This document shows positions 3,135 through 54,159 of a DNA stretch of 64,000 nucleotides, piece after piece. Each line of letters opens with the position of its first letter. Within the stretch, counting starts at the first letter, position 1. Under the pieces are notes generated by a model. It was not told the origin of the DNA. It did no database searches and saw only the letters and a program-made list of their open reading frames with translations. This DNA comes from Planctomycetota bacterium. GTDB taxonomy: Bacteria > Planctomycetota > E44-bin39. The stretch covers positions 36,013 to 100,012 of the forward strand of contig SOJX01000023.1 in the NCBI GenBank assembly GCA_004376375.1. Reading direction: 5' to 3'. The position numbers and the translations under genes are program-made.

Positions 3135-3851
3135 TCAGGATTCCTTCGGGGTCTCGGTTTCCACTTTGCGGGTAAGGAATTGCTTCGCCAGAATAAGCAC
3201 CACTCCGGCGACGATGAAGACGTCCGCCGGGTTGAAGGTCGGCCAGTGCGCGCCCGCCGGCGTACCGCGGACTTTTATCAGCCAATCGGCAAGGCCGGTC
3301 CAGAACTCGACTGAGAAATCGAGAAAGTCGCGGACCGCGTGGTGGAACATCCTGTCCCAGAGGTTCGCCACCGCGCCCGCCCCGATAAGAGAAAGCCCGA
3401 TCTGGTACACGCGCTCGCCGCCCGAAAGCCGGCTCAGAATCCAGATTATCACGCCGACGGCGACAACCGTGAAAACAATCAGGAAAGCCACGTTGGGGAG
3501 CATCCCGAACATCGCACCCGGGTTGAAAGAGAGCTGGACTGTAAAAAACTTTCTGATAACAACACGCCTGGGCGGCCGGACATCTACAACCCGTACGGGC
3601 CACTCCCCGGGGACGAGGGCAACCGGGTGAAGCCCGCTCCCGTACTCTTTTTGAAACATTGATTCAAAGGCTTTGGTATTTTTAACGTAGCCTATCTTGA
3701 ACGGGTCCTCGACGTAGACTATTCGATGGGGAACCGACCGAAACGCCAGCCACTTGCTTCCGAGGTCGATGAAGATGCCCGTAACCACCAGCACGTAAAA
3801 CAACCAGTGCGCCCTGAAATGGCGTGCAAGTTTTATTCGCAACGCTTTCAC
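3135..3851 (-). CDS. lspA: lipoprotein signal peptidase II (LspA), insertion-bearing
   Basis: Conserved LspA motifs NPGAMFG, GAVANLWDR, VRDFLDF and HWPTFNPADVFI, including both catalytic Asp residues. A roughly 70-aa insertion lies between TM1 and the NPGA motif. GTG start overlaps the stop of the upstream paralog (GTGA). Confidence 0.8.
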   Translation of the reverse strand: MKALRIKLARHFRAHWLFYVLVVTGIFIDLGSKWLAFRSVPHRIVYVEDPFKIGYVKNTKAFESMFQKEYGSGLHPVALVPGEWPVRVVDVRPPRRVVIRKFFTVQLSFNPGAMFGMLPNVAFLIVFTVVAVGVIIWILSRLSGGERVYQIGLSLIGAGAVANLWDRMFHHAVRDFLDFSVEFWTGLADWLIKVRGTPAGAHWPTFNPADVFIVAGVVLILAKQFLTRKVETETPKES

Positions 3852-4915
3852 TCTGAAGCCTCCGGCGCCTCTGGTGTCTCCGGTGCCCCTGGTGTCTCCG
3901 GCGGCTCAGGCGGCTTCGGCTTGAGAATACGGGGAAACGGCTCAGGCCCGTCCGGTATTCCCGGCCCATCCGCCTCGCGAGCGGAAGGCGGCGAAAAATC
4001 ACCGTCAGACACTTCAGGACCGTCCCATGTCTGTATTATCTGTTCCCCTGCATCTCCGGCAGCGCCTGTGCCGGATTCCGGAACAGGAGATGTTCCATCC
4101 AACACGGGCTGCGGAACAGCACCACCGGCTTCCCCTTCCGCCGCCATGTGCCCTTCACCGCTTATGACCTGCTTGATAAAGACGGTGAACACCCCGACGC
4201 AGATAAAAATATCGGCCACGTTGAAGGTGGGCCAGTGGCTCTGCCCGATCCATTCCACGCTTTCGAGCCAATTCGCAAGGCCCGGCCAGAACCCTGCGTG
4301 AAAATCCAGGAAGTCGCGCACGGCGTGGAAGTTCAGCCTGTCCCACAGGTTCCCGATCGCGCCGGCGACGATAAGCCCGAGGCTTATATGCATGGCATAC
4401 TGGGTGGGCATTAGGAACTGATGCACGATCCCGAGCATTATGGCAACCGCGACCGATGTGAACAGGATTAGAAACGCGGCCTTTGTCGGGAAAATCCCGA
4501 ACATCGCACCCGGGTTGAACGAACAGCGGACGTTCAGGAAGCCGGGAATCACCGTCCGCATGACATTCTTCTCGTCAACTCCGTCGGGGATACCTGGAAA
4601 ACGGTTTGGTTCATTGCCCCGGGCAGGCACTACGTATGTTTTGCCATCTTCTTTCTTAAGCACATATTCGCGTTGCGGCGGGTCTATAATGCTGAAAACC
4701 AGCTTCTTCGTGCCTATATCGGCGACAATTCCAAAAACAATCACGAAGTAGAAAATCCAGTGAACACGTACGGAACGGGCCATGCGAACCGCAAGCGGAA
4801 GGGATTCTTCCCATTCGGCAGCGCCGTCAACCGTTGAAGGTGGCTCGGATGTGACATCTTCGTGAACAACCGAGTCCGGAGCCGCATTATCTCTCAGTTC
4901 CGGGTTCTCATCCAT
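3848..4915 (-). CDS. lspA: lipoprotein signal peptidase II paralog with acidic N-terminal extension and Pro/Glu-rich C-terminal tail
   Basis: Same motif set as the downstream paralog (NPGAMFG, GNLWDR, VRDFLDF, HWPTFNVADIFI). Extra roughly 45 aa at the N-terminus and a roughly 100-aa low-complexity tail (PEPPETPGAPETPEAPE). Confidence 0.75.
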   Translation of the reverse strand: MDENPELRDNAAPDSVVHEDVTSEPPSTVDGAAEWEESLPLAVRMARSVRVHWIFYFVIVFGIVADIGTKKLVFSIIDPPQREYVLKKEDGKTYVVPARGNEPNRFPGIPDGVDEKNVMRTVIPGFLNVRCSFNPGAMFGIFPTKAAFLILFTSVAVAIMLGIVHQFLMPTQYAMHISLGLIVAGAIGNLWDRLNFHAVRDFLDFHAGFWPGLANWLESVEWIGQSHWPTFNVADIFICVGVFTVFIKQVISGEGHMAAEGEAGGAVPQPVLDGTSPVPESGTGAAGDAGEQIIQTWDGPEVSDGDFSPPSAREADGPGIPDGPEPFPRILKPKPPEPPETPGAPETPEAPEASE

Positions 4916-5034: not shown

Positions 5035-5904
5035 ATGTGCACCGGTATGTCCGGGGAGCGGTTTATGGCTGCCGAAAGCATGGCAAGTCGAATCTTTGTG
5101 GCGCCGATACGGGACAGAATACTGTCGCCCATCGGCTCGTACGTTGGCCGCAGCGTCCACAGCGCCGGCTATACCATGCTTATGACCTGCGAGGCGATTA
5201 TCAAGATCCCGACCCTTCTGAACTGGCGCAATTTCTGCGAGTTCCTGAGGCAGTGCTACCTGGCGGGCATCCAGAGCCTCCCGGTCGTATTCCTCGTCGG
5301 GCTTTTCGTAGGCATGATCCTCTCACTCCAGAGCGGGCTCACGCTCATGCAGTTCGGGCTTGAGCGGTTCATAGCGGAAATCACCGGCGCGGCCTTAACC
5401 CGTGAAATGGGCCCGCTCATGACGGCTATTATTCTTACCGGCCGGGTCGGAAGCTCGATGGCGGCGGAGCTGGGAACCATGTCCGTCTCCGAGGAAATCG
5501 ACGCCCTGCGCATCATGTCGATCAACCCGGTACGCTTCCTCGTCCTCCCGCGGATACTGGCGACGGTAATCATGATGGTGGTCCTTACAGTTTTCGCCAT
5601 CCTGATCGGAATATTCGGCGGTGCATTAATCGGGCAGGCGCAAATCGGAGTATCTTACGACATGTTCTTCAAGGGCGCATTCGACGTAATTACCTACAAA
5701 GACCTTTATTCCGGGCTTACCAAGGCCGCGGTTTTCGGCCTGCTGATTTCGATGATTTCCTGCTCGGAAGGCCTGCGGACCACCGGCGGCGCCGAAGGCG
5801 TCGGACGTGGCACCAGGCGGGCGGTCGTGAACTGCCTGCTTTACATAATCATGTTCAATTACATCATGGACAGCTTTATATTCCTCTTCGTTTATGGACG
5901 CTAA
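5035..5904 (+). CDS. mlaE: ABC transporter permease, MlaE/YrbE family
   Basis: Multi-TM permease with the typical MlaE core (EIDALRIMSINPVRFLVLPR). The real start may be an internal Met at about 5065-5080. A hairpin (ACCGGTG-N6-CACCGGT) overlaps the annotated start. Confidence 0.85.
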   Translation: MCTGMSGERFMAAESMASRIFVAPIRDRILSPIGSYVGRSVHSAGYTMLMTCEAIIKIPTLLNWRNFCEFLRQCYLAGIQSLPVVFLVGLFVGMILSLQSGLTLMQFGLERFIAEITGAALTREMGPLMTAIILTGRVGSSMAAELGTMSVSEEIDALRIMSINPVRFLVLPRILATVIMMVVLTVFAILIGIFGGALIGQAQIGVSYDMFFKGAFDVITYKDLYSGLTKAAVFGLLISMISCSEGLRTTGGAEGVGRGTRRAVVNCLLYIIMFNYIMDSFIFLFVYGR

Positions 5905-6724
5905 CGGAAACATCGTCATAAGCTTCGAGAACGCGTACAAAACGCTTTCCGGGCGCAATGTGCTCGACGGCATGACGTTCGACGTCAGGCGCGGCGAGAC
6001 GTTCGTCATCATCGGACCTTCCGGGATGGGGAAATCGGTCACGCTCAAGCACATGGTCGGCCTGATGCGGCCGGACGACGGCGAAGTCATTATCAGCGAC
6101 GAAGGCGAAGGCGGGCGGGTGAGATACGACGTTTCCCATCTGAAACCAATCCAGCTCGAGCGGCTGCGCGCAATCTTCGGTTACCTTTTCCAGGACGGCG
6201 CCCTCCTCGCCTCGCTCACGGTAGGTGAAAACGTCGCGCTGCCTTTATTCGAGAGGCGATTGCACGTCTTCCGCGAAAAGTACGGCCGCAGAAACGCTGA
6301 AAATAAAATCTGGGAGCGGGTCAGGGAAAAGCTCGGCATGGTCGACATGGTGCACGCCATCGACAACCTGCCGGCCGAGCTCTCGGGCGGTATGAGGAAA
6401 CGCGCGGGACTCGCCCGCGCCATCATACACGAGCCGAAGATAATCCTTTACGACGAGCCGACAAGCGGACTCGACCCCGTGATGGGCACGAACATCAACC
6501 GGCTGATACGACACCTCCAGGAAAAGCTCGGTGTAACAAGCCTGGTCGTCACGCACGATATCGACAGCGCATACTACGTCGGAGACCGCATCGCCATGAT
6601 TAACAGGGGACGCATGGAGCAGATCGGAACGCCGGATGAAATAAAAAACACGACCAATCCCGTCGTAAGACAGTTTATCGAGGGGAATATCGAAGGCCCG
6701 CTTACCGCTGGAAGAAAGCACTAA
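5894..6724 (+). CDS. mlaF: ABC transporter ATP-binding protein, MlaF family
   Basis: Walker A GPSGMGKS, signature LSGGMRKR, Walker B ILYDEPTSGLD. Overlaps the mlaE stop. Confidence 0.9.
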   Translation: MDANGNIVISFENAYKTLSGRNVLDGMTFDVRRGETFVIIGPSGMGKSVTLKHMVGLMRPDDGEVIISDEGEGGRVRYDVSHLKPIQLERLRAIFGYLFQDGALLASLTVGENVALPLFERRLHVFREKYGRRNAENKIWERVREKLGMVDMVHAIDNLPAELSGGMRKRAGLARAIIHEPKIILYDEPTSGLDPVMGTNINRLIRHLQEKLGVTSLVVTHDIDSAYYVGDRIAMINRGRMEQIGTPDEIKNTTNPVVRQFIEGNIEGPLTAGRKH

Positions 6725-6763
6725 AAAAAGAAACAGGGAAACAAGAAAACAGGGGAATAAGTA

Positions 6764-7147
6764 GTGGGGAAAAGTTTTGAAGATCTTGAAGTATGGAAAC
6801 TGGCAAGGAAATTACGGGTGGACATCTATGACATTACGGAGAGCTTTCCATCACGCGAAAAGTATTCTCTTGTGAGTCAAATGCGACGGGCTGTACTCTC
6901 TGTTCCGGGCAATATAGCGGAAGGATACGGCAGATATCACTATAAGGAAAACATTCAGATGTGCAGGATTGCACGAGGCTCTTTGAACGAGTTGATTGAT
7001 TATTTATTCGCATCTGTGGATACAAAATACATTACTCAGGCGGTTTTCGAAACTCTTTACGCACAGGCAAGGGAAGTGGAAAAGGTTCTGAACGGATATA
7101 TAAAGTATTTGCAGAAACAGGCCGGCAAGGAAAAAGAGAAAGAATAA
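6764..7147 (+). CDS. four-helix-bundle protein (TIGR02436, 23S rRNA intervening-sequence protein family)
   Basis: MGKSFEDLEVWKLARKL...FPSREKYSLVSQMRRAVLSVPGNIAEG is characteristic of the family. Inserted between mlaF and mlaD and flanked by inverted AACAAGG/CCTTGTT tandem arms (6725-6760 and 7150-7200). Confidence 0.8.
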   Translation: MGKSFEDLEVWKLARKLRVDIYDITESFPSREKYSLVSQMRRAVLSVPGNIAEGYGRYHYKENIQMCRIARGSLNELIDYLFASVDTKYITQAVFETLYAQAREVEKVLNGYIKYLQKQAGKEKEKE

Positions 7148-7206
7148 GTTCTTTACCTGTTTCCTTGTTGTCTTGTTCCCTTGTTACCTGTTTGAGGACT
7201 ATTATC

Positions 7207-9051
7207 ATGGATGAAAAAAAGCAACAGGATGCGCCGAAAGACCAGGTCGCAATAAGGCGCTCTCAGACACGCCGCGTTAACGCGATTGTCGGCCTAATCA
7301 CCGCGATCGGCGTGGTGGCGCTCCTGTGGTTTACCGTTAGGGTCACCGACGCGACGTTCTTCAAGTCCGGCTACTGGATCAAGGTCCGCTTCGACGAAAT
7401 CATCGGCCTGCAGGAAGGCGACCTCGTGACCTTCTCCGGCATGGTGGTGGGAAAAGTAAAATACATCGATCTCGTGGAAGACAGGGGAAAAACGCGCATC
7501 CAGTTGACCTGCTTTATCGAAGACAAGACACGTAAAAACGTGAAGGGGGAAGAAGAAACCTACCCCATCTACATCCCGGACGATTCCGTTTTCGATATCC
7601 GCTCGTCCAGCCTGCTCGGCGGCGTTACGCTCGTAATCGACCGCGGACAGTCGAAAGTCCCTATTCCTGATACGCGGAATCCTGACAAAATAGAAAAGGA
7701 AGACATTCGAAACGGACTGACTCCAATCTCTCTTGTTAAAGAAATTGAAAGAACCGCGAAATCCGTCGGCGACCTTGCGACGGAAACCAAGCCGTATATA
7801 AAAAACACTCTGCAGAACGTGGAAAACATAACCAGGAATGCCGAGGAATACGTCAAGCGGATGAACGAAGGCCCCGGCCTCCTCCACGGGCTCGCATACG
7901 ACAAGGAAACCTATGTGAAACTACGGTCCACCGTCGATTCGCTCAACAAGTTCGTGGGCAAGCTCGGGGAAAAGACCTCGATAGTCGATAACCTGGACGC
8001 TTCAATCTATAACGTAAAAAAAATCACCGACAACTTTGCCGGCGGCGAAGGGTTTCTCCCCTACCTGATAAGCGACAGATCGAAACCGATGGTCGGCAAG
8101 GTCAATTCAATACTGGACAACGTGAGCATCTTCTCCGCCAGGCTCGCGGCCGACAACAGCTTTATCGCGAGAATACAGGGACCGGAAGGCGAAGCCCTCT
8201 TCCACGATATCAGCGAAATCATAGGGCGTGTGAGGGCCCTCACAAACAACATGGAAAACTCCTCGGTCCACATGCTCCTTTCGGACGAGGGCAAGCTCTA
8301 CGAGGATTTCAAGGATTTCGCGGAGTCGCTGCGGCTTCTGGGACGCCAGGTCACCGGCCGCGGTGTTCCGAAGGACGAGCGTAACTCGATCGCGAGGCTC
8401 CTCACCGACAAGGGCGAACTGTACGACGACGCCATGGTGGGCGTAAAAAGTCTGCGCAAGTTCATGGAGCCGCTTGCGAGGCTTAAAACGAACGTCATCG
8501 TAGGTCATCACTCCTACAACGGTCAGGAACTCGGCGTCACCAGGTTCGGCATCAAGCTGATACCGCGCAGGTCGCGCTACTTCCTCCTCGGCGGCTCCCT
8601 CATGAGCCCGGACAAGAACGGGCCGATAGTCTTCGACGAAGACGATAAGGATAACGGTAAGAGCATTATATTCATAGACCTGCAGGTCGCGCAGCACATC
8701 TGGCTCAACGAAGTCGAGAACAAGCCCGACGACTGGCGCAACGTCATCCTTACCGGCCGCGTTGGCCTTCTCGAAGGCAAGTTCGGCGCGGGCGTCGACC
8801 TCGATTTCTGCAAAAATCTCCGCCTGACAGTCGAGGCGCGCGACTCCCACACCGACCACAAGGACTTCGACGAAAACGTGGAAGGCACGCTCCTGCGCTC
8901 CGAAATTTCATTCAAATTCGCAAAGTACTTCCGCGTCCACGTCGGGGCAGACAACCTTATCGACGACCCAGACTGGTCATTCGGCTTTTCGGTCGAATTT
9001 GAAGACCCCGACATCCGCGCGCTCGTGGCCGTCGCAGGAACCGGGCAATAA
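7207..9051 (+). CDS. mlaD: MCE-domain protein, long MlaD-like with beta-rich C-terminal domain
   Basis: N-terminal TM helix plus MCE domain, a long helical middle, then a C-terminal roughly 170 aa with alternating amphipathic beta-strand patterns (IIFIDLQVAQ, LRLTVEAR, SFGFSVEFE). Start taken at ATG 7207 (MDEKKQQ) rather than the track start at 7165. Confidence 0.8.
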   Translation: MDEKKQQDAPKDQVAIRRSQTRRVNAIVGLITAIGVVALLWFTVRVTDATFFKSGYWIKVRFDEIIGLQEGDLVTFSGMVVGKVKYIDLVEDRGKTRIQLTCFIEDKTRKNVKGEEETYPIYIPDDSVFDIRSSSLLGGVTLVIDRGQSKVPIPDTRNPDKIEKEDIRNGLTPISLVKEIERTAKSVGDLATETKPYIKNTLQNVENITRNAEEYVKRMNEGPGLLHGLAYDKETYVKLRSTVDSLNKFVGKLGEKTSIVDNLDASIYNVKKITDNFAGGEGFLPYLISDRSKPMVGKVNSILDNVSIFSARLAADNSFIARIQGPEGEALFHDISEIIGRVRALTNNMENSSVHMLLSDEGKLYEDFKDFAESLRLLGRQVTGRGVPKDERNSIARLLTDKGELYDDAMVGVKSLRKFMEPLARLKTNVIVGHHSYNGQELGVTRFGIKLIPRRSRYFLLGGSLMSPDKNGPIVFDEDDKDNGKSIIFIDLQVAQHIWLNEVENKPDDWRNVILTGRVGLLEGKFGAGVDLDFCKNLRLTVEARDSHTDHKDFDENVEGTLLRSEISFKFAKYFRVHVGADNLIDDPDWSFGFSVEFEDPDIRALVAVAGTGQ

Positions 9052-9097
9052 AACGCGTCAAACGTCGAACGTCCAACGTCAAACGTAATATTAAATT

Positions 9098-9130
9098 GTA
9101 GGGGCGGGTCTCAGACCCGCCCAATTCTTT
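9098..9130. terminator. GC-rich hairpin between convergent mlaD and lipoprotein genes (putative bidirectional terminator)
   Basis: GGGGCGGGTC-TCA-GACCCGCC stem-loop followed by AATTCTTT. Confidence 0.5.
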
Positions 9131-9145
9131 AACCTTATTCCCTTA

Positions 9146-10189
9146 TCAACTTGTTTCCTTATCCCCTTTTTCGACCGGCGGTTTTTCTTCTTCTTCCGAT
9201 TCGGATTCTTCTTCTACTTTTTCGGGGTCAATACGAAACTCATATAATGCTTTCCTTGCCGCCCGCCTTACACTGCTGTTACTATCTTCAAAATATGCCT
9301 GCTTCAGAGGTTCAATAGCCTTTTTATCACCAGTTGCGCTCAGGCAGTGTGCAGCTTCCCTGCGTACGCCTCCTGCCGGATCGTTCAGTAAAGCATAAAT
9401 TAGAGTCTTCATGTATTTCCTGCGATTCTTCCGGGTATTCTCCCAGAGCATTTCTTCACGCTTTCCAGGGTCTTGTTCATTTTTAAACTCATTCAGCAAC
9501 CTTTCAACTTCATCTTCATATCTTTTCTTCCGGGCTATATCCGTAGCTTCGTCATCTTGTTTAATGTCCAAACCGAACCAGCCACTTAAAAAGTCGGCCA
9601 TTTCAACCAGGCTGAGACCGAGTTCTATTCCTATTCCCACGCTTGCATGGACCGTCAGGTCCAGAAACCTGTCACTGTCTTCTGACCTCCAGTAATCACC
9701 TACCGTTCCCCATAAATCAGTGCTTACATCCAATCCGAGTATACCGCAATTACGCACTACCCATTTTCCATCCCAATCGACAATTTCAACACCGCTGGAG
9801 AACGGAAGGCAACATATTATTACCGTACCCTCAATCACTTCACCTAAGCCATCAAAGCTTGGAGTGTTGGTCGTTGTTGGAAAAGCACTGCTCTTCTCAA
9901 GTGCAAGGGAAGGACCCACTATATTAATAACAGGCAAGCCCAGGACAATAACTTTCTCGTCAACAAAATCGCGGCCAATAAACCCGATTCTTCGCTCCCA
10001 ACTCGCGCCGGCGGAGACATAAAACACGAGGCCCGATGTTCCAGCCGAAACGCCGTACCCATATCCGGCCTTTACCGTAAACATATCCACAAAATCCAGA
10101 CCGCGGTCTTTCAAATATGTCCCCAGCGACGCGCAGCCGGAAAAGGAAACAACAAACAGGAGGAGTAATGGAAAGATAAATCGTAACAT
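9146..10189 (-). CDS. lipoprotein with C-terminal HEAT (PBS-lyase-like) repeats and acidic tail
   Basis: Signal peptide with lipobox FSGC at the chosen ATG (10189). HEAT-like repeats (DPAGGVRREAAHCLSATGD, NSSVRRAARKAL). The track ORF extends upstream through a REP palindrome, so the shorter start is preferred. Confidence 0.6.
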   Translation of the reverse strand: MLRFIFPLLLLFVVSFSGCASLGTYLKDRGLDFVDMFTVKAGYGYGVSAGTSGLVFYVSAGASWERRIGFIGRDFVDEKVIVLGLPVINIVGPSLALEKSSAFPTTTNTPSFDGLGEVIEGTVIICCLPFSSGVEIVDWDGKWVVRNCGILGLDVSTDLWGTVGDYWRSEDSDRFLDLTVHASVGIGIELGLSLVEMADFLSGWFGLDIKQDDEATDIARKKRYEDEVERLLNEFKNEQDPGKREEMLWENTRKNRRKYMKTLIYALLNDPAGGVRREAAHCLSATGDKKAIEPLKQAYFEDSNSSVRRAARKALYEFRIDPEKVEEESESEEEEKPPVEKGDKETS

Positions 10190-10207
10190 TCTGCTACTCA
10201 TAAGGAT

Positions 10208-10271
10208 GTTAGCCGCGCCGCTTGCGGCGCGCGGTTTTCGGCACACCCGCCGCGCAAGCGCGGCGGCTAAC
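10208..10271. repeat. inverted pair of REP-like 29-bp elements upstream of the HEAT lipoprotein gene
   Basis: GTTAGCCGCGCCGCTTGCGGCGCGCGG ... CCGCCGCGCAAGCGCGGCGGCTAAC. Confidence 0.8.
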
Positions 10272-10441
10272 ACTGATTTCAATCAGATTACTTACATTCT
10301 ATGGCCGAATAACAATATTGCAATAAGAACATTCAACCGCCTGTCTTCCGAACCTCTTAACTTCTGAACTTCAACACTTCAGCACTTCAGCACTTCTTAA
10401 CCCCGGCACCCCAGCACCCCAGCACTCCTCCAAATTTCCCC

Positions 10442-14760: not shown

Positions 14761-14866
14761 AGAAGTACCAAGTACCGAGTACCGGGTACCGAGTGAAGAA
14801 TACCGTGATTATATTCTACTCGATACTCGGTACTCGGTACTTGGTACTTGGTACTTGGTACTTCTT
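14761..14866. repeat. about 100-nt imperfect hairpin built from GGTACTC/GAGTACC heptamer arrays, between infB and the DUF503 gene
   Basis: Left arm GAAGTACCAAGTACCGAGTACCGGGTACCGAGTGAAGAATA. Right arm TATTCTACTCGATACTCGGTACTCGGTACTTGGTACTTGGTACTTGGTACTTC. The right arm overlaps the DUF503 RBS and start. Confidence 0.85.
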
Positions 14867-15149: not shown

Positions 15150-15234
15150 AGAGGTCGTCCGGTCCTTCGGTCATGTATTTTTATTAAATACTCTTGACCG
15201 ATTGACCGAAGGACCGAGTGACCGAAGGACCATT
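15141..15234. repeat. imperfect hairpin built from GGTCCTTCGGTC/GACCGAAGGACC arrays between the DUF503 gene and rbfA
   Basis: GGTCGTCCGGTCCTTCGGTCA ... TGACCGATTGACCGAAGGACCGAGTGACCGAAGGACC. Confidence 0.8.
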
Positions 15235-16591: not shown

Positions 16592-16665
16592 GCGCCTGTT
16601 CTCAGTAGTTAGTCGTTAGTGATTAATAATATAGACTAACGACTAACCACTAACCACTAACAACC
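16592..16665. repeat. hairpin of AGTTAGTCGTTAGTG / CACTAACGACTAACC arrays in the 5-prime UTR of the acyl-CoA dehydrogenase gene
   Basis: Inverted arms around an AT-rich loop (TTAATAATATAG). Confidence 0.75.
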
Positions 16666-16676
16666 AGGAGACTGGC

Positions 16677-21721: not shown

Positions 21722-21890
21722 CATCGGTTATTGGTTATTGGTTATTGGTTATTGGTTAAAAATATGGGAAGCACCACGCCGGAAGGCGTGGTGACAATTG
21801 AGCGGGCGGGCTTGCCCGCCGTTAAAACAAAATTCGGGCGGGTCGCCGACCCGCCCAACACATAACGCGCGAAGCTCATTTGATTGGTGG

Positions 21891-21910
21891 GGCAGACATT
21901 CCTGTCTGCC
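21891..21910. repeat. GACAGACA-N4-TGTCTGTC palindrome family member (GGCAGACATTCCTGTCTGCC) adjacent to TAACGCGCGAAGCTC
   Basis: Other copies at 146-165, 23127-23146 and 45289-45310. The TAACGCGCGAAGCTC motif is at 21863-21877 and 45316-45330, and in reverse complement at 49745-49759. Confidence 0.8.
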
Positions 21911-22083
21911 CGCCGCAGGCGAAAGCCTGCGGCGAAACGCGGCGAGCAAGCTCGCCGGCTAATTACTGAGAAAACTCAATATCCATTGTATAAAAAACCG
22001 TTCTTAAAAAAGAAGTGATTCGACACTCGAAAATCGTAAATCGAAAATCACATATCGGCTACAATGAAGGCGCAGGTTGAACT

Positions 22084-22721: not shown

Positions 22722-22855
22722 AAAGTATGAAGGATGAAGGATAAAGGATGAAATTTATATTTAATAATTCTTAATTCATATTTCAGACTTCACACTTCTG
22801 CCTTCATACTTCAGCCTTCATACTTCATCCTTTCTTTACGGTTCGCGCTCTGAAT
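22722..22855. repeat. long hairpin of AGTATGAAGGATGAAGG / CCTTCATACTTCAT arrays between convergent genes
   Basis: AGTATGAAGGATGAAGGATAAAGGATGAAA ... CTTCATACTTCAGCCTTCATACTTCATCCTTTC around an AT-rich loop. Confidence 0.8.
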
Positions 22856-25217: not shown

Positions 25218-25300
25218 CAAGCGAAAAGGAAGTGCTGGAGTGCTGGCGTGCTGGAGTGCTGGCGTGCTGGAGTGCTGGGGTGCTGGGGTGCTGGAGTTAG
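25218..25300. repeat. tandem array of nine (A/G)GTGCTGG octamers
   Basis: GTGCTGGAGTGCTGGCGTGCTGG and so on. The same unit appears in reverse complement at 10365-10430 and 40525-40560. Confidence 0.85.
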
Positions 25301-28136: not shown

Positions 28137-28310
28137 TGCGCTGTCACAAAAAGTTCACTAATTATTCAGTTATTCAGTTACCCGGTTATTCAGTTATTCA
28201 GTTACCCGGTTATTCAGTTATTCAGTTAAAAATAAAACTGAATAACTGAATTACTGAATTACTGAATAACCAAAATAGCTGATAGCTGATAGCTGAACGC
28301 TGACAGCTCA
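28137..28310. repeat. hairpin of CAGTTATTCAGTTA / TAACTGAATAACTG arrays followed by a TAGCTGA tandem array
   Basis: Inverted arms 28137-28200 and 28215-28265. Then TAGCTGATAGCTGATAGCTGAACGCTGACAGCTCA. Confidence 0.8.
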
Positions 28311-28376
28311 TAATTATCTCTAAATACAAACTTATCGAACCCGAATAACGTCTGATAATAAGTATAAAGTTTTTGC

Positions 28377-29821: not shown

Positions 29822-30035
29822 GAATTATGAAGTATGAAGTATGAAGGCTGAAGTATGAAAAAGAATTGTAAATTGAGAATTGTAGATTGAGAATTGCAAA
29901 TTGGAAATTGTCAATACTCAATTTCCAATACTCAATTCGCAAACGGAAAGGACGAATTAAGAATTATTAAATATAAATTTTATCCTTCATCCTTCATACT
30001 TCATACTTCATACTTTATCCTTCATCCTTTGTTTA
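29822..30035. repeat. nested double hairpin: outer ATGAAGTATGAAGG arms, inner AATTGAGAATTGTAGATTGAG arms
   Basis: Outer arms 29825-29855 and 29970-30035. Inner arms 29860-29905 and 29905-29945. Directly upstream of the GH lipoprotein gene. Confidence 0.8.
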
Positions 30036-37551: not shown

Positions 37552-38313
37552 TTAAAGTTCGGTCTTTTTCAGGATTTCGGAGACCGCTCTCACTGCCGGC
37601 GAATCGGCCGGCAGATCCAGAAGCGAATCGCCGTTCATGTTGGCGGCCATAACCGCTTCGTCGTCCGGTATTCTGCCGAGGTATTCTGCAGACCCGGTTC
37701 CGGTCAGTTTTTCTTCCATCGATTCGGGCACGCCCGCGCCCGCGACGACGTATACGTATTTGAACGTCACGCCGACCTCGCCGAGAATCACGCGGGAGCG
37801 GTCGAGGTTTGCGCGCGCTTTTTTCGACGCGTCGACAATCTGGATTATCGCGTCGACGTCACTGAAGAGTTTGCGGTTGAGATGCTCGAGCCCGCCCGGC
37901 GAATCGACTACGACGTAATCGTAACCGTTGACCAGACCCTCCATAATGCTTCGCAGCGTGTTGTTTGCGCTACAGTAACAGCCGCGGTCCCACTTCGTAC
38001 CGAGCGCGACAAGGTCGAACTTCTTACTTTCGTAAAACTCATTATGAAAGAGGTATTCGACCTGCTCGGTAAATGGAAGGTTTCCGACCGAGTCCGAAAC
38101 TTTTTTCTTTTTTATATCGTAAAGCAGGTCGCTAATGGTCCTGATGCCGGCAGCCTCGAGGTCAACGCCAAGCATCTCGGCCAGTGAAGTGTCGGGGTCG
38201 GCGTCGACGGCAAGGATTCTGCCGCCGCCTTTTTCGGCAAAGTGTTTAATGGCAAGCGCGGCAAAAGTGGACTTGCCGACGCCGCCTCTTCCTGTTACGA
38301 CCATGATGGCCAC
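37552..38313 (-). CDS. CooC-like P-loop ATPase (MinD/ParA superfamily)
   Basis: Deviant Walker A GRGGVGKST. Size and layout match CooC-type maturation ATPases. Confidence 0.7.
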   Translation of the reverse strand: MAIMVVTGRGGVGKSTFAALAIKHFAEKGGGRILAVDADPDTSLAEMLGVDLEAAGIRTISDLLYDIKKKKVSDSVGNLPFTEQVEYLFHNEFYESKKFDLVALGTKWDRGCYCSANNTLRSIMEGLVNGYDYVVVDSPGGLEHLNRKLFSDVDAIIQIVDASKKARANLDRSRVILGEVGVTFKYVYVVAGAGVPESMEEKLTGTGSAEYLGRIPDDEAVMAANMNGDSLLDLPADSPAVRAVSEILKKTEL

Positions 38314-38430
38314 TTATTCCTCCCAGCGCACAACAAACTTGTTAAGTCCAGACGCGGCGACAAGACGACAAGGAGACCCGGCGACAAGGAGACAAGGAGA
38401 AATATTCTATTTTAAGAATTTCAAGGCTCG

Positions 38431-38820
38431 TCATTTTTTGCTTTCCCCTATAATCCAGTCTTCAGGCTTATTAATCATTATTACCAGCTGTGAGCAAACA
38501 TGCTCGTATTTGTTCGACAATTCCGCTGCTATTGCGCTATCAAGATACTTGCATCGGACTGCAATTTCGATCCATGTCTCAGTTTCAGCAGCTTCACTCT
38601 CCGAGTCATTGAGTTTGCTTATGAATGCCGCCTTATACCGCCTTTTCCTCCAGGCCTCTGCAATATTGGCTGCAACTGACCTGGATGATCTGCGTATCTG
38701 ATCGGTTAACGAATATTTCTCTTCAGGTGGAAACTTTTTGGATATCTCAAATATTTCCATTGCCAGTTCAAACGCTGCCTGCCAGACCCTTAGTTCTTTG
38801 AAGTGATTTATTTTCCCCAT
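38431..38820 (-). CDS. four-helix-bundle protein (TIGR02436, 23S rRNA intervening-sequence protein family)
   Basis: MGKINHFKELRVWQAAFELAMEIF...PPEEKYSLTDQIRRSSRSVAANIAEA. Flanked by inverted GACAAGG/CCTTGTC tandem arms (38330-38400 and 38840-38880). Confidence 0.8.
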   Translation of the reverse strand: MGKINHFKELRVWQAAFELAMEIFEISKKFPPEEKYSLTDQIRRSSRSVAANIAEAWRKRRYKAAFISKLNDSESEAAETETWIEIAVRCKYLDSAIAAELSNKYEHVCSQLVIMINKPEDWIIGESKK

Positions 38821-38918
38821 TTTCTCTCCGAAAGCCTTGTTTTATTTTCGCCTTGTCTCCTTGTCTCCTTGTCAACTTGTCTGAGCGCTCAACACATTAT
38901 CGTCCAAACAGGCAGAAC

Positions 38919-39476
38919 TTATCGATTGCCAATCAGCGACATGGCCTCGTTACGGGTCGCGATTTTGTCGCGGAAGATGCCGCGGACGACCGAGGTCACC
39001 GTGCGCGCGCCCGGTTTCTTGACGCCGCGCATGGTCATGCAGAGGTGCTCGGCGTCCATGACGACAATCACGCCCTTCGGGTCCAGGTCGCGCATCAGGG
39101 TGTCGGCAATCTGCGAGGTCAGGCGCTCCTGCACCTGGAGCTTGCGGGCGTGGAACTCGACGACGCGCGCAAGCTTGGAGATGCCGCTTATCGATTCTTT
39201 CGGGATATACGCCACGTGGCAGATTCCGAGAAACGGAATCATGTGATGCTCGCATACGGAATAAAACGGGATGTCCCGCACGAGTATGATTTCGTCGTGC
39301 CGCTCGGCGGGCAGTTTCTTGATAATATCCTCATCCGACTTGCCGATGTTGCCGCAGATCTCGCCGTACATCCTGGCGACACGCTCGGGCGTCTCGGCCA
39401 GGCCGGGCCGCTCGGGGTCGTCGCCGAGGCCATCAATCAGCAGGCGAATCGCTTCTTCGATTTTCTTTTCATCCAT
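38919..39476 (-). CDS. folE: GTP cyclohydrolase I
   Basis: FolE core with the CEHHM motif. Confidence 0.95.
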   Translation of the reverse strand: MDEKKIEEAIRLLIDGLGDDPERPGLAETPERVARMYGEICGNIGKSDEDIIKKLPAERHDEIILVRDIPFYSVCEHHMIPFLGICHVAYIPKESISGISKLARVVEFHARKLQVQERLTSQIADTLMRDLDPKGVIVVMDAEHLCMTMRGVKKPGARTVTSVVRGIFRDKIATRNEAMSLIGNR

Positions 39477-40370: not shown

Positions 40371-40374
40371 CTCC

Positions 40375-40470
40375 GGTTATTCGGTTCTTCGGTTACTCGG
40401 TTCTTCGGTTCCTCGGTTATTCGGTTATCCGGTTCTTCGGTTCTTCGGTTCTTCGGTTTTATTTCTTAAG
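40375..40470. repeat. tandem array of about twelve CGGTT(C/A)TT octamers between dapA and pdxJ
   Basis: CGGTTATTCGGTTCTTCGGTTACTCGGTTCTTCGG and so on. Followed by GCGCAGCAAGCTGCGC palindrome, CACTTCAGCACTTCAAC and CATCCTTCATACTTCAT arrays up to 40600. Confidence 0.85.
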
Positions 40471-40587
40471 AAACGCGCAGCAAGCTGCGCCGCTATATAT
40501 ATTATTAAATTATTCCCTCTTAACTTCAGCACTTCAACACCTCAGCACTTCAACACTTCTTAACTTTCATCCTTCATACTTCATCCT

Positions 40588-41322
40588 TCATACTTTCTTC
40601 TCGAATTTATCCAGGAGTTCGCGCATCTCGCGCACGGCCGGGCCGATGCCCGTGAAAATCGCGCGCGCGATAATCGCGAACCCGATGTTGACTTCCTCGA
40701 GCTCGGGAATCGCCGCCACCGGGCCGATGTTATGGTAATCAAGCCCGTGACCGGCGATAACGGCCAGGCCATTTTTCGCGGCAATCTGCGAGCCGAGAAT
40801 CAGGTCGGCCAGCGCTTGTTCCCGCGCAGTGCCGCGGGCGTTGCAGTATATTCCGGTGTGAAGCTCGACGGCCTGCGCGCCGACCTTTGCCGAAGCCTCG
40901 ATCTGCTCCGGCACGGGGTCGATGAACAGCGACACGAAAATCCCGCTGTCCCGAAGCCGCCCGGCCACGGCCTGCACTTTGTCTGCCGAGCCCGCGACGT
41001 CGAGACCGCCTTCGGTCGTCACCTCTTCGCGCCGCTCGGGGACGAGCGTGCATTGATAAGGTTTCACCTCGCATGCGATATCGACGATTTCATCCCACGT
41101 CGCCATTTCAAGGTTGAGGTGCGTCTTCACGGTTTCGCTCATCAGGCGCACGTCGCGGTCGTTGATATGTCGTCGGTCCTCGCGCAGGTGAATAGTTATC
41201 CCGTCGGCACCGTTCATCTCGCAGACGGCCGCGGCCGCCACGGGGTCGGGAAACGGCTCACGCCTCGCCTGCCGCACGGTTGCGACATGGTCTACATTAA
41301 CACCAAGACGAATCATTTTCAC
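40588..41322 (-). CDS. pdxJ: pyridoxine 5-prime-phosphate synthase
   Basis: PdxJ N-terminal signature [15 protein letters not shown]. Confidence 0.95.
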
Positions 41323-43359: not shown

Positions 43360-43674
43360 ACGTGCATTTCCGGCCCGTTCGGCGGCATGGTAGCACGGTC
43401 CCGCAAAAGCGGCAAGGGGAAAATAGGGTACGGAGCATCAATCGCGTAAGTTCAGACACGGCAATGGGAAGACACGGTGACAAGGAGACACGGAGAAAAG
43501 GAGACACGGAGAAAAAAGATATATTGACGGAAGGACCGAAAGACCGAAGGACCAAAGGACCAATAGACCACTTCACAAAAATGAAAAAAATTCTCGAATC
43601 CGCGTTTGAATCGGTTACAATACCCACTGTAAGGAGTACCCAGCCTGGAAGAATCTTCACCTGAGGGGGATAAC

Positions 43675-44232: not shown

Positions 44233-45197
44233 TGAAAATCCTTATCGCCGGCGCGTACGACAACGTGCCCCACACGACCGTGAAATTCATGGAAAAGGCT
44301 TTCAGAAGCCTCGGGCACGACGTCGAGATTTTCGATTTCCGCAGGATAAGGAAAGAGCGCGGCGGCTCGGAGATGGAATCGCAAATGCTGGCGACGGTCC
44401 GCGAAACAGAACCGGACACCATGATTCTCATGAAGGGCGAAGACATCAACTTGCGTACTATTATAGCAATAGGAGAACACACGCACGTCTCGCTCAGGTA
44501 TATGGATTCGCCGCTCCCGCGCTGGCTGAGGAAGCTCGCCGCCGCATGCGATTCGACTTTTATCACCGCCGGCGGGCTTGTCGCTGAATTCGAGAAGGCC
44601 GGCGTGAAAAACGTATTCCATCTCTGGGAGGGCGTCGACCCCGAGGTCCACAGGCACTGGGAAACGGATACAGATGATTTCGAATGCGACGTCGCGTTCG
44701 TGGGCGTGAACAAGGCCGGGCGTGACGCGCTTCTCTCCACCGTGATCGAGACCGGCGCGGACGTCGCCGTATACGGCCGCAAATGGCCCGCGGGCTTCCC
44801 GGTCAGAGGCGAGGGAATATATCTGGACGATTTTGCAAAACTCTGCAGCAGGGCGAAAATCGTTCTCGGCATGAACGACAACAACTCTATCGAGAATTAT
44901 TTCTCCGACCGCACGTTCCAGATCCCGGCCTGCCGCGGCTTTCACATTACCAGCCGCGTGCCGGGCATGGAAAACTGGTTCACCGACGGCGGACACCTGG
45001 TATGCTTCGACATAGGGCGCGGACGCGGTAAAAAAAAGTACGCCGACGCGGCGGATAAGGTAAAATACTGGCTCGACCGGCCGGACGAGCGGGTCCGTAT
45101 AGCCGCCGCCGGACAGAAATGGGTCTACGAGCGCTACACCTGGAAAAAAGTGTGCGCCGGGATGACGGGAAAGATAGAAGCTCTGATTTCCTGTTAG
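44232..45197 (+). CDS. glycosyltransferase-like protein (CgeB/DUF3880-like)
   Basis: Soluble GT-B-like layout. Translationally coupled to the upstream acetyltransferase (TAATG overlap). Confidence 0.5.
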   Translation: MKILIAGAYDNVPHTTVKFMEKAFRSLGHDVEIFDFRRIRKERGGSEMESQMLATVRETEPDTMILMKGEDINLRTIIAIGEHTHVSLRYMDSPLPRWLRKLAAACDSTFITAGGLVAEFEKAGVKNVFHLWEGVDPEVHRHWETDTDDFECDVAFVGVNKAGRDALLSTVIETGADVAVYGRKWPAGFPVRGEGIYLDDFAKLCSRAKIVLGMNDNNSIENYFSDRTFQIPACRGFHITSRVPGMENWFTDGGHLVCFDIGRGRGKKKYADAADKVKYWLDRPDERVRIAAAGQKWVYERYTWKKVCAGMTGKIEALISC

Positions 45198-45405
45198 CGG
45201 CCGCGCTTGCGCGGCGCTGAATAAAAAAAGGAAAACAAGGGAACAAGAAAACAAGGAAACAAGGAAGAAAGGAATAAGGAAATGGTAGGACAGACATTCC
45301 TGTCTGTCCATAAGATAACGCGCGAAGCTCCTTAACCCTTGTTGCCTTGTCAACCTGTTACCTTGTCACTTCCCCAGTCAACGCGCCGCAAGCGGCGCCG
45401 CTAAC
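45193..45405. repeat. composite nested palindromic element with no gene inside
   Basis: GTTAGCGGCCGCGCTTGCGCGGCGCTGAA (45193-45221) and its inverted copy (45378-45405) bracket the AACAAGG array (45225-45285), the GGACAGACATTCCTGTCTGTCC palindrome (45289-45310), TAACGCGCGAAGCTC (45316-45330) and the CCTTGTT array (45335-45370). Confidence 0.85.
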
Positions 45406-45426
45406 AAATAAACGCAAAGGGTTTTT

Positions 45427-49118: not shown

Positions 49119-49708
49119 TCTATTACGCCCGCAAGCTCGGCGTGTACATTATCATGCTCGTCCTGCTCGCGCTTGCGGTTTTCCAGACGCCGCGCATCGA
49201 CAGCTTCATCGTCGGCGCGGTACTGGCCGCCGTCGGGCTTGCCCTGCGCGTGTGGGCGTGCGGACACCTTTATAAAAACGAAAAACTCGCCTGCACGGGA
49301 CCGTACGCGCACCTGAAGCACCCGCTTTACCTGGGAACTTTTTTCATCGTCTTCGGCCTGCTCTCGCCGATGTTTTTCCATTTCGAAATGACTGCCGACA
49401 ACTTCTTCAAGTTTCCAACCTTCTACCTGGCGATTTTCTGCATCCTGGTTCTTATTATCGTCTACCTGCCCCGTAAGGCGCGCGACGAGCATGAGCGGCT
49501 TGTCAAGCGGTTCGGTGAGCCCTACGTCAAGTGGGACGAAAACGTGCCCAACTACTTCCCCCGCCTGCGCGGTTACGACATGGGCGACAAGGCGCGCTTC
49601 TCGTTCTCACAGATGTTTGTCAACAGCGAGCACTTGACCGTAGCCGCCGTCACGGTCGGATTTATCGTTATTGCCTTCCGCTGGTGGCAAGCACTTTTTA
49701 AGGGATAA
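49097..49708 (+). CDS. isoprenylcysteine carboxyl methyltransferase (ICMT/PEMT) family membrane methyltransferase
   Basis: Multi-TM protein with the C-terminal ICMT-like motif region (HLYKNEKLACTGPYAHLKHPLYLG). Confidence 0.65.
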   Translation: MAHGTKVIYYARKLGVYIIMLVLLALAVFQTPRIDSFIVGAVLAAVGLALRVWACGHLYKNEKLACTGPYAHLKHPLYLGTFFIVFGLLSPMFFHFEMTADNFFKFPTFYLAIFCILVLIIVYLPRKARDEHERLVKRFGEPYVKWDENVPNYFPRLRGYDMGDKARFSFSQMFVNSEHLTVAAVTVGFIVIAFRWWQALFKG

Positions 49709-49888
49709 GGGATAGGGGATAAGGGATAAGGGACAAGTAATAACGAGCTTCGCGCGTTATTAAACAGAAATTCTTCCATATATACACATTCCTGAATTGC
49801 CAAAACAGATACCCGCTACTGAGATTAGGTATTTTATCGGGTATTATATGCCGTTATCGCATTTTTTAGGCAATTATTCATTTTCCAT

Positions 49889-54017: not shown

Positions 54018-54159
54018 AGTATGAAGTATAAAGTATGAAGGATGAAAACAAGAAATACTGAAGTCATTTTGACTTCGGATTGCGGATTGAGAATTAATGT
54101 CAACAGGGGCGCGGCACGCCGCGCCCCTGCAATCCTATTTGTCAATTAATGGACAGCAG

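Follow-up and report, generated by a model that had tools for sequence, protein, structure and literature searches.

A four-helix-bundle gene between inverted octamer arrays at the mlaF-mlaD junction of a planctomycete, read as an intervening-sequence-type cassette outside rRNA

Intervening sequences (IVSs) of 23S rRNA that bear an open reading frame (ORF), the protein family PF05635/TIGR02436 and intergenic heptamer repeats are all known already. A stretch of 64,000 nucleotides from a Planctomycetota bacterium (contig SOJX01000023.1, positions 36,013 to 100,012; hereafter the window) raises the question of how they are related, because at its mlaF-mlaD junction a gene of this family, encoding a four-helix-bundle (4HB) protein of 127 aa, stands between inverted tandem arrays of octamers. 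Do the arrays belong to the gene and travel with it, as the arms of an IVS do, or has the gene simply come to rest among repeats that fill the intergenic DNA of its host? The element, called W1, is read here as an IVS-type cassette that lies outside rRNA, in an mRNA operon. An initial annotation made from the sequence alone had suggested that IVS-like elements can enter mRNAs as well as rRNA, and this interpretation is, overall, partly supported by the analysis that follows.

Two cassettes and their empty sites

The initial annotation placed a TIGR02436 gene between mlaF and mlaD, and profile searches bear this out. The ORF at 6764-7147 scores 116.5 bits against TIGR02436 (cut-off 24; E 6e-34), covering model positions 1-109 of 109, and 124.5 bits against PF05635 (cut-off 33.8), covering model positions 1-106 of 106. 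With 127 aa its product is a small single-domain protein in the size range of the family (about 110-135 aa). The sole relative of solved structure found by phmmer against the PDB is XCC0516 (2GSC chain A; E 4.4e-14, residues 5-79), a homopentamer of four-helix bundles according to the Coxiella paper (PMC4990558). The junction is laid out as follows.

5894 to 6724, + strand: mlaF-like ABC ATPase (PF00005), its stop codon (6722-6724) at the base of the predicted stem
6721 to 6763, + strand: 5' arm of W1, purine-rich; tandem octamers AAACAGGG/AAACAAGA/AAACAGGG (core 6730-6754), then GGGGAATAAGTA directly before the GTG start
6764 to 7147, + strand: 4HB protein gene (TIGR02436/PF05635, the S23p or '23S rRNA IVS protein' family); GTG start, 127 aa, 42% GC, third-position GC (GC3) 0.45
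7153 to 7198, + strand: 3' arm of W1, pyrimidine-rich; five CYTGTT-type octamers (core 7156-7193), complementary to the 5' arm
7207 to 9051, + strand: MlaD/MCE-domain protein, 614 aa (PF02470; TIGR04430 under its cut-off), with orthologues at 83% and 63% identity

The inverted arrays, too, lie where the initial annotation had seen them (6730-6754 and 7156-7193). Taken as 43 nt each (6721-6763 and 7154-7196), the arms are 74% complementary, and as RNA they are predicted to form a 36-bp duplex (20 AU, 11 GC and 5 GU pairs; -34.7 kcal/mol) with a mismatch about every 7-8 bp, which would reach from the stop codon of mlaF as far as the Shine-Dalgarno sequence of mlaD, GAGGA (7194-7198), which the end of the 3' arm overlaps. 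When the 5' arm is matched against 4266 positions across the 64-kb window, its own partner ranks about fourth (z about -3.9), a better match than chance would give though not a unique one. The gene also differs in composition from its surroundings, with 42% GC and a GC3 of 0.45 against 55-60% GC and a GC3 of 0.72-0.75 in the neighbour genes. The element therefore has the IVS-like geometry claimed for it: a long predicted stem that has a small S23p-type ORF in its loop and, as in Coxiella, short tandem repeats for a 5' arm.

Orthologous junctions were located via MlaD and FolE homologues, and just two non-self homologues of MlaD reach E<=1e-20. The locus of the first, L003 (MlaD 63% identical), is fully syntenic over lspA-lspA-mlaE-mlaF-mlaD-nusA-infB-DUF503-rbfA, and in it the mlaF stop codon lies 4 nt from the mlaD ATG, without a 4HB gene, so that mlaF and mlaD are indeed normally adjacent, as had been supposed. 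The second, L004 (MlaD 83% identical), carries at this junction a 90-nt ORF-less hairpin of inverted octamer arrays with the unit GACCAAAG, reading GGTCGTTC GGTCATTC GGTC ... GACCAAAA GACCAAGC GACCAAGC, a unit unlike that of W1. Homology between the window and L004 resumes just outside 6730 and 7194, and the cassette boundaries are therefore definable. The claim of a discrete insertion thus holds, given that the element is missing at both orthologous junctions examined and differs in GC content (42% versus 55-58%), and at the DNA level W1 reads as an insertion relative to the orthologous loci.

The window holds a second gene of the same family, arranged in the same manner and here called W2.

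38349 to 38402, - strand: 3' arm of W2 (gene orientation), an octamer array of GACAAGAC/GACAAGGA as read on the + strand
38431 to 38820, - strand: second 4HB gene, 129 aa (PF05635 E 4.9e-34), about 30-35% identical to the W1 protein
38835 to 38883, - strand: 5' arm of W2 (gene orientation), an array of CCTTGTCT on the + strand

This second protein scores 117.2 bits in the TIGR02436/PF05635 family test, and its gene is flanked by folE (38919-39476) and by a gene for a CbiA/ParA-type ATPase (37552-38313), all three on the - strand, with W2 in sense. A purine-rich, GACAAGG-type array precedes the start codon and a complementary array follows the stop codon; the predicted arm duplex comprises 46 bp (-66 kcal/mol), and the best partner of the W2 5' arm anywhere in the window is its own 3' arm. 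With about -54 (over 60 nt of flank) and about -35 respectively, W2 and W1 give the two strongest flank pairings among the genes of the window, the best value among 21 other genes with gaps on both sides being -30.1. In one relative, L187 (FolE 91% identical), folE and the ATPase gene are 9 nt apart and W2 is missing; in another, L188 (FolE 84% identical), a 118-nt ORF-less hairpin with the unit GATTTCA occupies the junction. The folE junction thus occurs in the three states known from the mla junction, namely a short gap (L187), an ORF-less hairpin (L188) and a 4HB cassette (the window).

No target-site duplication stands flush with the ends of W1. A 15-nt direct repeat, AAAAAAAG[A/C]AACAGG, does occur at 6723-6737, on the left boundary of W1, and at 7214-7228, within mlaD codons 3-7, and the uninterrupted outgroup junctions hold cores of the arm unit (CAGGGAAA at 5985-5992 of L003, GACAAGA at 3566-3572 of L187). 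Such matches could reflect insertion by microhomology with Shine-Dalgarno-like junction sequence, or they could be a purine-rich coincidence.

W1 (6730-7194, about 465 bp) is thus probably a horizontally acquired 4HB gene that carries its own inverted array arms and that inserted in sense at the mlaF-mlaD junction. How the operon would accommodate such an insertion can be sketched. Because no promoter-like or terminator-like signals stand out inside the cassette, W1 would be transcribed as part of the mla mRNA (mlaEF-mlaD), in which the 5' arm, rich in purines, would pair with the pyrimidine-rich 3' arm to give the imperfect 36-bp stem. The stem would loop out the ORF and bring the mlaF stop codon up to the mlaD ribosome-binding site, restoring the proximity seen in the uninterrupted L003, and the insertion would be tolerated for that reason, as an IVS is tolerated in a helix of 23S rRNA. 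By analogy with the Coxiella IVS the stem may also be a substrate of RNase III, a step that is plausible rather than probable; cleavage there might, as the initial annotation proposed, uncouple the mlaEF and mlaD messages.

Arms and protein across the family

A survey of 160 4HB loci, 80 from metagenomes and, as a replicate, 80 from named genomes (Bacteroidota, Nitrospirota, Planctomycetota, Kiritimatiellota, Zixibacteria, Sumerlaeota, Ignavibacteria, Acidobacteriota, Chloroflexota and others), places the two cassettes in a wider setting; gene calls in these loci are crude and ORF-based. The 80 nt upstream of each 4HB gene were paired with the 80 nt downstream and compared with 24 decoys from the same locus. 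The gene's own flanks surpass all 24 decoys in 25 of 70 metagenome loci (36%) and in 29 of 78 named-genome loci (37%), where 4% would be expected (p<1e-17), and their mean free energy (dG) of pairing is -23.2, as compared to -15.25 +/- 0.40 for 4HB flanks re-paired between loci, a difference reached in 0/5000 permutations. In 22 loci no other of the 144 candidates pairs as well as the gene's own 3' arm. On visual inspection, the arms consist of units of 7-9 nt, tandemly repeated and inverted, whose sequence is specific to the locus, and arrays are present in 70% of the gaps that adjoin a 4HB gene versus 36% of other gaps (160 loci; Fisher p 2e-7). An Rfam scan of the 20 best-armed of the 160 loci found no rRNA, and a scan of the 64-kb window found neither rRNA nor any other family. 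The same layout is found family-wide, across many phyla and outside rRNA.

The cassettes also have a characteristic placement. They lie preferentially within co-directional gene strings and in sense orientation, being co-oriented with both neighbours in 104 of 124 loci against about 56% expected (p 5e-11). The purine-rich arm is the upstream arm in 66 of 77 loci, and in 54 of 77 the duplex is stronger when calculated for the sense RNA than for the antisense RNA (p 7e-5), which hints, modestly, at a role for pairing in the sense transcript.

A further observation concerns the repeat unit of the arms. With a match between units defined as a rotation-insensitive edit distance <=1, the proportion of locus pairs with matching units is 60% at 75-90% protein identity, 32% at 60-75%, 7% at 50-60% and <=0.5% below 40%, and the covariation of unit and protein gives 0/500 in a Mantel test. 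The clade whose unit is AGTAGAC/GACAGTA spans at least seven phyla, with hosts among Sumerlaeota, an anammox planctomycete, Zixibacteria, Ignavibacteria, Terriglobales, Latescibacterota and Thermodesulfovibrionia, and 141 of its 153 locus pairs are without a common flanking homologue. The W1 unit itself reappears at L184, where the protein is 61% identical to that of W1 and the gene follows one for a class-II aminoacyl-tRNA synthetase, with ACAAGG arrays upstream and CTTGT downstream. Arrays in these 160 loci that have no 4HB gene of their own (orphan arrays) share the arm unit of the 4HB gene in 22% of comparisons within a locus but in 3.3% across loci (p 2e-12). Because the unit tracks the clade in unrelated contexts, because L184 shares the unit of W1 and because the unit at the same site in L004 differs, the arm type travels with the ORF and not with the insertion site. 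Such conservation of unit within clades implies either that arms and gene are mobilised together or that the encoded protein recognises the arms by their sequence, and the most economical reading of these comparisons would be one of the two: recognition by the 4HB protein, or a need for co-mobilisation.

Among individual loci, NPUN_RS35280 on plasmid pNPUN02 of Nostoc punctiforme (L182) has (AGTCAGG)n upstream and (CTGACTC)n downstream, and K6T44_RS09915 of Riemerella anatipestifer (L183) has the arms GGTTCAAG and CCTTGAAC. Genes of another kind are found in similar settings: both PD-(D/E)XK_3 (GxxExxY-type) genes in the surveyed loci are flanked by inverted tandem arrays, one in L091 at 594-1025 with the unit CACAGAT/GCGCAGATGG (dG -58.7) and one in L121 at 1076-1498 with the unit CGCTCATT/AATTAGCG. 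This suggests that PD-(D/E)XK_3 is a second cargo family of the same kind of cassette.

Generic arrays and other explanations

A number of observations weigh against the reading of W1 as a cassette bounded by arms of its own. The first concern the fold. The minimum free energy of the whole W1 cassette is no more stable than that of shuffled sequences, and since z is only -0.8 this fold is not usable as evidence; the W1 3' arm can alternatively pair locally with the purine-rich 3' end of the ORF; and for the W1 5' arm, pairing with CCTT-rich arrays at 9121 and 871 is about as good as pairing with its own partner. The second concern the family. Several members of the AGTAGAC clade have downstream arrays in the same sense instead of inverted ones, and stem formation is therefore not universal; the arrays on the two sides of the 4HB gene on pCC7120gamma of Nostoc PCC 7120 (L181) are not complementary; flanks of comparable complementarity are found at some 12-15% of the other genes in the 160 loci; and identical 4HB copies at different sites were not found, so that recent mobility is not observed. 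A last group concerns the host DNA: arrays of 7-8 nt occur in 13 of the 33 window gaps that do not adjoin a 4HB gene (about 40%), short-loop array hairpins occur at about eight other junctions, even within the infB-DUF503-rbfA operon, and inverted arrays of TAAGGGA type stand at 475-505 and 860-906, on either side of a 76-aa ORF (516-746, - strand) that is not a 4HB gene and has no Pfam family. The array registers are ambiguous, which, together with the same-sense downstream arrays in several clade members, makes the arms ill suited to an analysis of compensatory changes.

One alternative overlaps with the cassette reading. The arrays may serve as recognition sites at which the pentameric 4HB protein of the gene binds DNA or RNA, regulating its own expression and a wider regulon of like-unit arrays, with the inverted stem a secondary matter. 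At 45-60% protein identity neutral intergenic DNA should no longer be recognisable, yet the unit is kept; this points to selection on the sequence of the arms and so speaks for such sites, as do the orphan arrays that share the unit of the local 4HB gene and the clade members with same-sense arrays on both sides. The 4HB family is related, moreover, to Avd (PF22296 match), which binds nucleic acid. An abstract on diversity-generating retroelements (DGRs) calls Avd just an accessory protein. In X. campestris, the genome-wide GGGAATC repeat also overlaps the start codon of XCC0516, according to the supplement of PMC4692102. However, the sense-strand G:U bias and the RNase III-cleaved stem of Coxiella point to functional pairing in RNA, and co-transfer alone could account for part of the covariation of unit and protein; as a full account of the arms, recognition sites seem somewhat unlikely.

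A second alternative makes the arms no part of the cassette. In this lineage, it holds, gaps are filled with arrays and hairpins of 7-8 nt, and the 4HB gene landed, or was kept, in the loop of one of them. The window is rich in such arrays: Tandem Repeats Finder and a custom scan find at least 23 clusters with a period of 7-8 over its 64 kb. Array-bearing gaps are at 187-213, 860-906, 9056-9172, 10359-10425, 14762-14866, 15150-15231, 16600-16666, 21726-21758, 22723-22832, 25231-25297, 28162-28312, 29822-30029, 40374-40595, 43470-43570, 49699-49743 and 54014-54046, and about a dozen unit families are represented, including GAAGTAT, GACCGAAG, TACTCGG, ACTTCAG, TTATTCAG, AGTGCTGG and TAAGGGA. Beyond the arrays in 13 of 33 window gaps, and in 36% of other gaps in the survey, the sister lineage has ORF-less hairpins at exactly the two junctions in question (L004 and L188), the W1 arm pairs with other arrays no less well than with its own partner, and the loop of one hairpin in the window houses a different small element.

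45224 to 45375, + strand: ORF-less hairpin with the AACAAGG unit as in W1; AAACAAGG array at 45224-45280, CCTTGTT array at 45337-45375, loop of about 55 nt

The loop of this hairpin contains a palindrome (GGACAGACATTCCTGTCTGTCC) that resembles repetitive extragenic palindromic (REP) sequences, together with the motif TAACGCGCGAAGCTC; the palindrome or the motif recurs near 150-175, 21868-21915 and 49745. The hairpin is nested in an outer 29-nt inverted repeat (45192-45220 and 45378-45406). It aligns at 76-77% with the W1 arms, in an alignment of low complexity, and is possibly a non-autonomous relative of the cassette.

Because generic arrays abound in the window and pair equally well with the W1 arm, cassette arms and generic arrays are indistinguishable from the window alone, and it is the comparative data that establish W1 as a cassette. 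The comparative data go against an origin in generic arrays on several counts. The hairpins at the same junctions in the sister lineage have different units (GACCAAAG and GATTTCA, not ACAAGG); the unit follows the protein clade across phyla and unrelated contexts, with the W1 unit found elsewhere at L184; and own arms pair far better than 4HB arms re-paired between loci. Within the window, furthermore, inverted array pairs with a loop of more than 300 nt are limited to W1, W2 and the pair around the 76-aa ORF. The initial annotation's own reservation, that the arms might be the same as the generic intergenic arrays, accordingly stands in so far as arrays are common in other gaps and pair equally well, and falls in so far as the unit tracks the protein clade and differs from that of L004. 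On balance, a 4HB gene caught in a pre-existing hairpin is an improbable explanation of W1. The 76-aa ORF has its purine-rich arm upstream in gene orientation, and is possibly another cargo, of a third kind, arranged as the 4HB genes are.

A third alternative, that the gene is an ordinary resident of the operon whose purine-rich leader and pyrimidine tract resemble arms by low-complexity chance, is very hard to sustain: the arms are indeed of low complexity, the global fold is not significant and the leader could be a mere ribosome-binding region, but the gene is missing from both orthologous loci and has a foreign GC content, a second copy has the same anatomy, and the family-wide statistics do not fit chance. 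Finally, a DGR remnant with the ORF as its Avd accessory gene was considered and rejected on scores and gene context, and is next to inconceivable, since the weak matches to bAvd PF22296 (E 3.6e-7; 31.1 bits) and NF033474 (29.1 bits) fall under the curated cut-offs of 40 and 80 bits, TIGR02436 is by far the best model, and no Pfam-recognised reverse transcriptase is found among the genes about 6 kb to either side of the 4HB ORF.

Known systems and the operon context

The closest counterpart of W1 is the ORF-bearing IVS of 23S rRNA. That of Coxiella burnetii, in helix 45, is 428 nt long, carries an ORF of the S23p family and is closed by a terminal stem of 28 bp that RNase III cuts (PMC4990558). 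Directly before the ATG of its ORF lie two to three tandem GACAGAT heptamers and a GACAGAA, the first repeat being the site of the 5' cut (PMC4990558). The elements of Leptospira and Coxiella share with W1 an S23p-family ORF in the loop, a length of about 430-480 nt and complementary termini, and the order of parts in Coxiella (short tandem repeats, 4HB ORF, complementary arm) is that of W1. Like W1, which is missing in L003 and L004, and W2, which is missing in L187 and L188, the 23S IVSs are sporadic among relatives, and like the operon cassettes they are in sense orientation and part of the host transcript, although for W1 co-transcription is presumed. The differences are in host and stem. 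IVSs of 23S rRNA occupy helix 9, 25 or 45, whereas W1 is hosted by the mlaF/mlaD junction and W2 by the folE/ATPase junction, and in contrast to the near-perfect 28 bp of Coxiella, W1 has octamer arrays on both sides and an interrupted predicted stem of 36 bp. W1 is thus not a 23S IVS by location, but the description of it as built like an IVS stands. Strain-level slippage of the kind reported for Coxiella has left no sign here: the window and locus L087 are identical over all 541 aligned bases, and in ten population copies (L091-L100) the arms are identical, without variation in array copy number.

The arrays themselves resemble the short tandemly repeated repetitive (STRR) sequences of cyanobacteria, the TAACTGA repeats and GGGAATC, in that their units are 7-8 nt long and intergenic and occur at many loci per genome. 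TAACTGA repeats of Beggiatoaceae, Cyanobacteria and Bacteroidetes often lie immediately upstream of start codons (PMC4679880), and GGGAATC is a genome-wide heptamer of X. campestris with 186 arrays, often arranged as convergent inverted pairs, of which there are 70 (PMC4692102). In a search of these two papers, neither names a linked gene family or a 4HB protein, and no array-binding protein is established, candidates being proposed in PMC4679880 and none being named in PMC4692102. Unlike STRR-type repeats as published, the arrays described here bracket one gene family, and their unit co-varies with the protein.

A case apart is XCC0516 of X. campestris ATCC 33913, the gene whose product has a solved structure. 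Supplementary file 2 of PMC4692102 lists four copies of GGGAATC over its start codon, 6 nt from bccP, and a term search of the main text of that paper returned neither 'S23' nor a hypothetical protein. Like W1, XCC0516 encodes a homologous protein, stands beside a housekeeping gene (bccP) and has an array at its start; unlike W1, it has no inverted partner array in the supplement of PMC4692102. As for other parallels, the DGR accessory protein Avd has a distantly homologous four-helix-bundle fold (PF22296 match), but W1 scores under the Avd cut-offs and comes without the reverse transcriptase and template/variable repeats of a DGR. Pairs of MITEs (miniature transposable elements with inverted repeats) and autonomous transposons, as well as REP sequences and their REP-associated tyrosine transposases (RAYTs), share with the cassettes terminal inverted repeats, possibly a coexistence of ORF-bearing and ORF-less hairpins of the same arm type, and a scattered distribution in intergenic DNA. 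In contrast to these systems, the cassettes have no recognisable transposase or HUH fold, their arms are tandem arrays and not a unique terminal inverted repeat, and multi-copy identical elements have not been seen. Indeed, the 4HB protein is the sole ORF of W1 and no transposase family matches within the cassette; no homologue of the protein was found in the phage collection. Outside rRNA, PF05635/TIGR02436 paralogues are annotated on plasmids of several cyanobacteria and in Riemerella. A literature search, itself incomplete, found no paper that links PF05635/S23p genes to flanking arrays beyond the Coxiella IVS, and an earlier description is possible.

These parallels invite a broader conjecture, which is put forward tentatively and may well prove wrong. 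The 4HB S23p/IVS proteins would be specific partners of STRR-type arrays in Cyanobacteria, Bacteroidota, Planctomycetota, Xanthomonas and others, each clade recognising its own unit; a 4HB gene with its arrays would form an autonomous element that inserts in sense at operon junctions, of which the 23S IVSs would be a special case; ORF-less hairpins of the same unit would be non-autonomous derivatives or targets; and PD-(D/E)XK_3 would be a second cargo. If true, the conjecture would link the role of the conserved ORFs of 23S IVSs with the nature of the heptamer and octamer repeats of cyanobacteria, Bacteroidota, Beggiatoaceae and Xanthomonas, and would make both questions testable. Tractable organisms with examples include Nostoc punctiforme (NPUN_RS35280), Riemerella anatipestifer (K6T44_RS09915) and X. 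campestris (XCC0516, with its crystal structure solved). In any case the IVS layout is not specific to rRNA but is that of a widespread cassette within protein-coding operons, and if the stem is processed, such cassettes would represent a general way for selfish inserts to split or insulate polycistronic mRNAs.

Within about 6 kb to either side of the 4HB ORF the called genes are one for a 745-aa protein without a Pfam match on record, two copies of lspA, the mla genes E, F and D, a gene with HEAT repeats, nusA and the beginning of infB. The permease gene of the operon is the following.

5065 to 5904, + strand: mlaE permease (TIGR00056, 245.8 bits; PF02405, E 1e-76), 279 aa as called in the source contig

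The ATPase gene at 5894-6724 is termed mlaF-like, from its context, because it scores 149.5 bits against the MlaF equivalog NF008809, under the cut-off of 441. Two further features of the neighbourhood deserve mention. The two adjoining signal-peptidase-II (Peptidase_A8) genes, at 3135-4915 of the window, overlap by 4 nt, and the pair is kept in the relative L003. The HEAT-repeat gene (9146-10282, GC3 0.46) lies on the opposite strand between mlaD and nusA; it is missing from the syntenic L003, has arrays on either side (9056-9172 and 10359-10425), and is probably another lineage-specific insertion.

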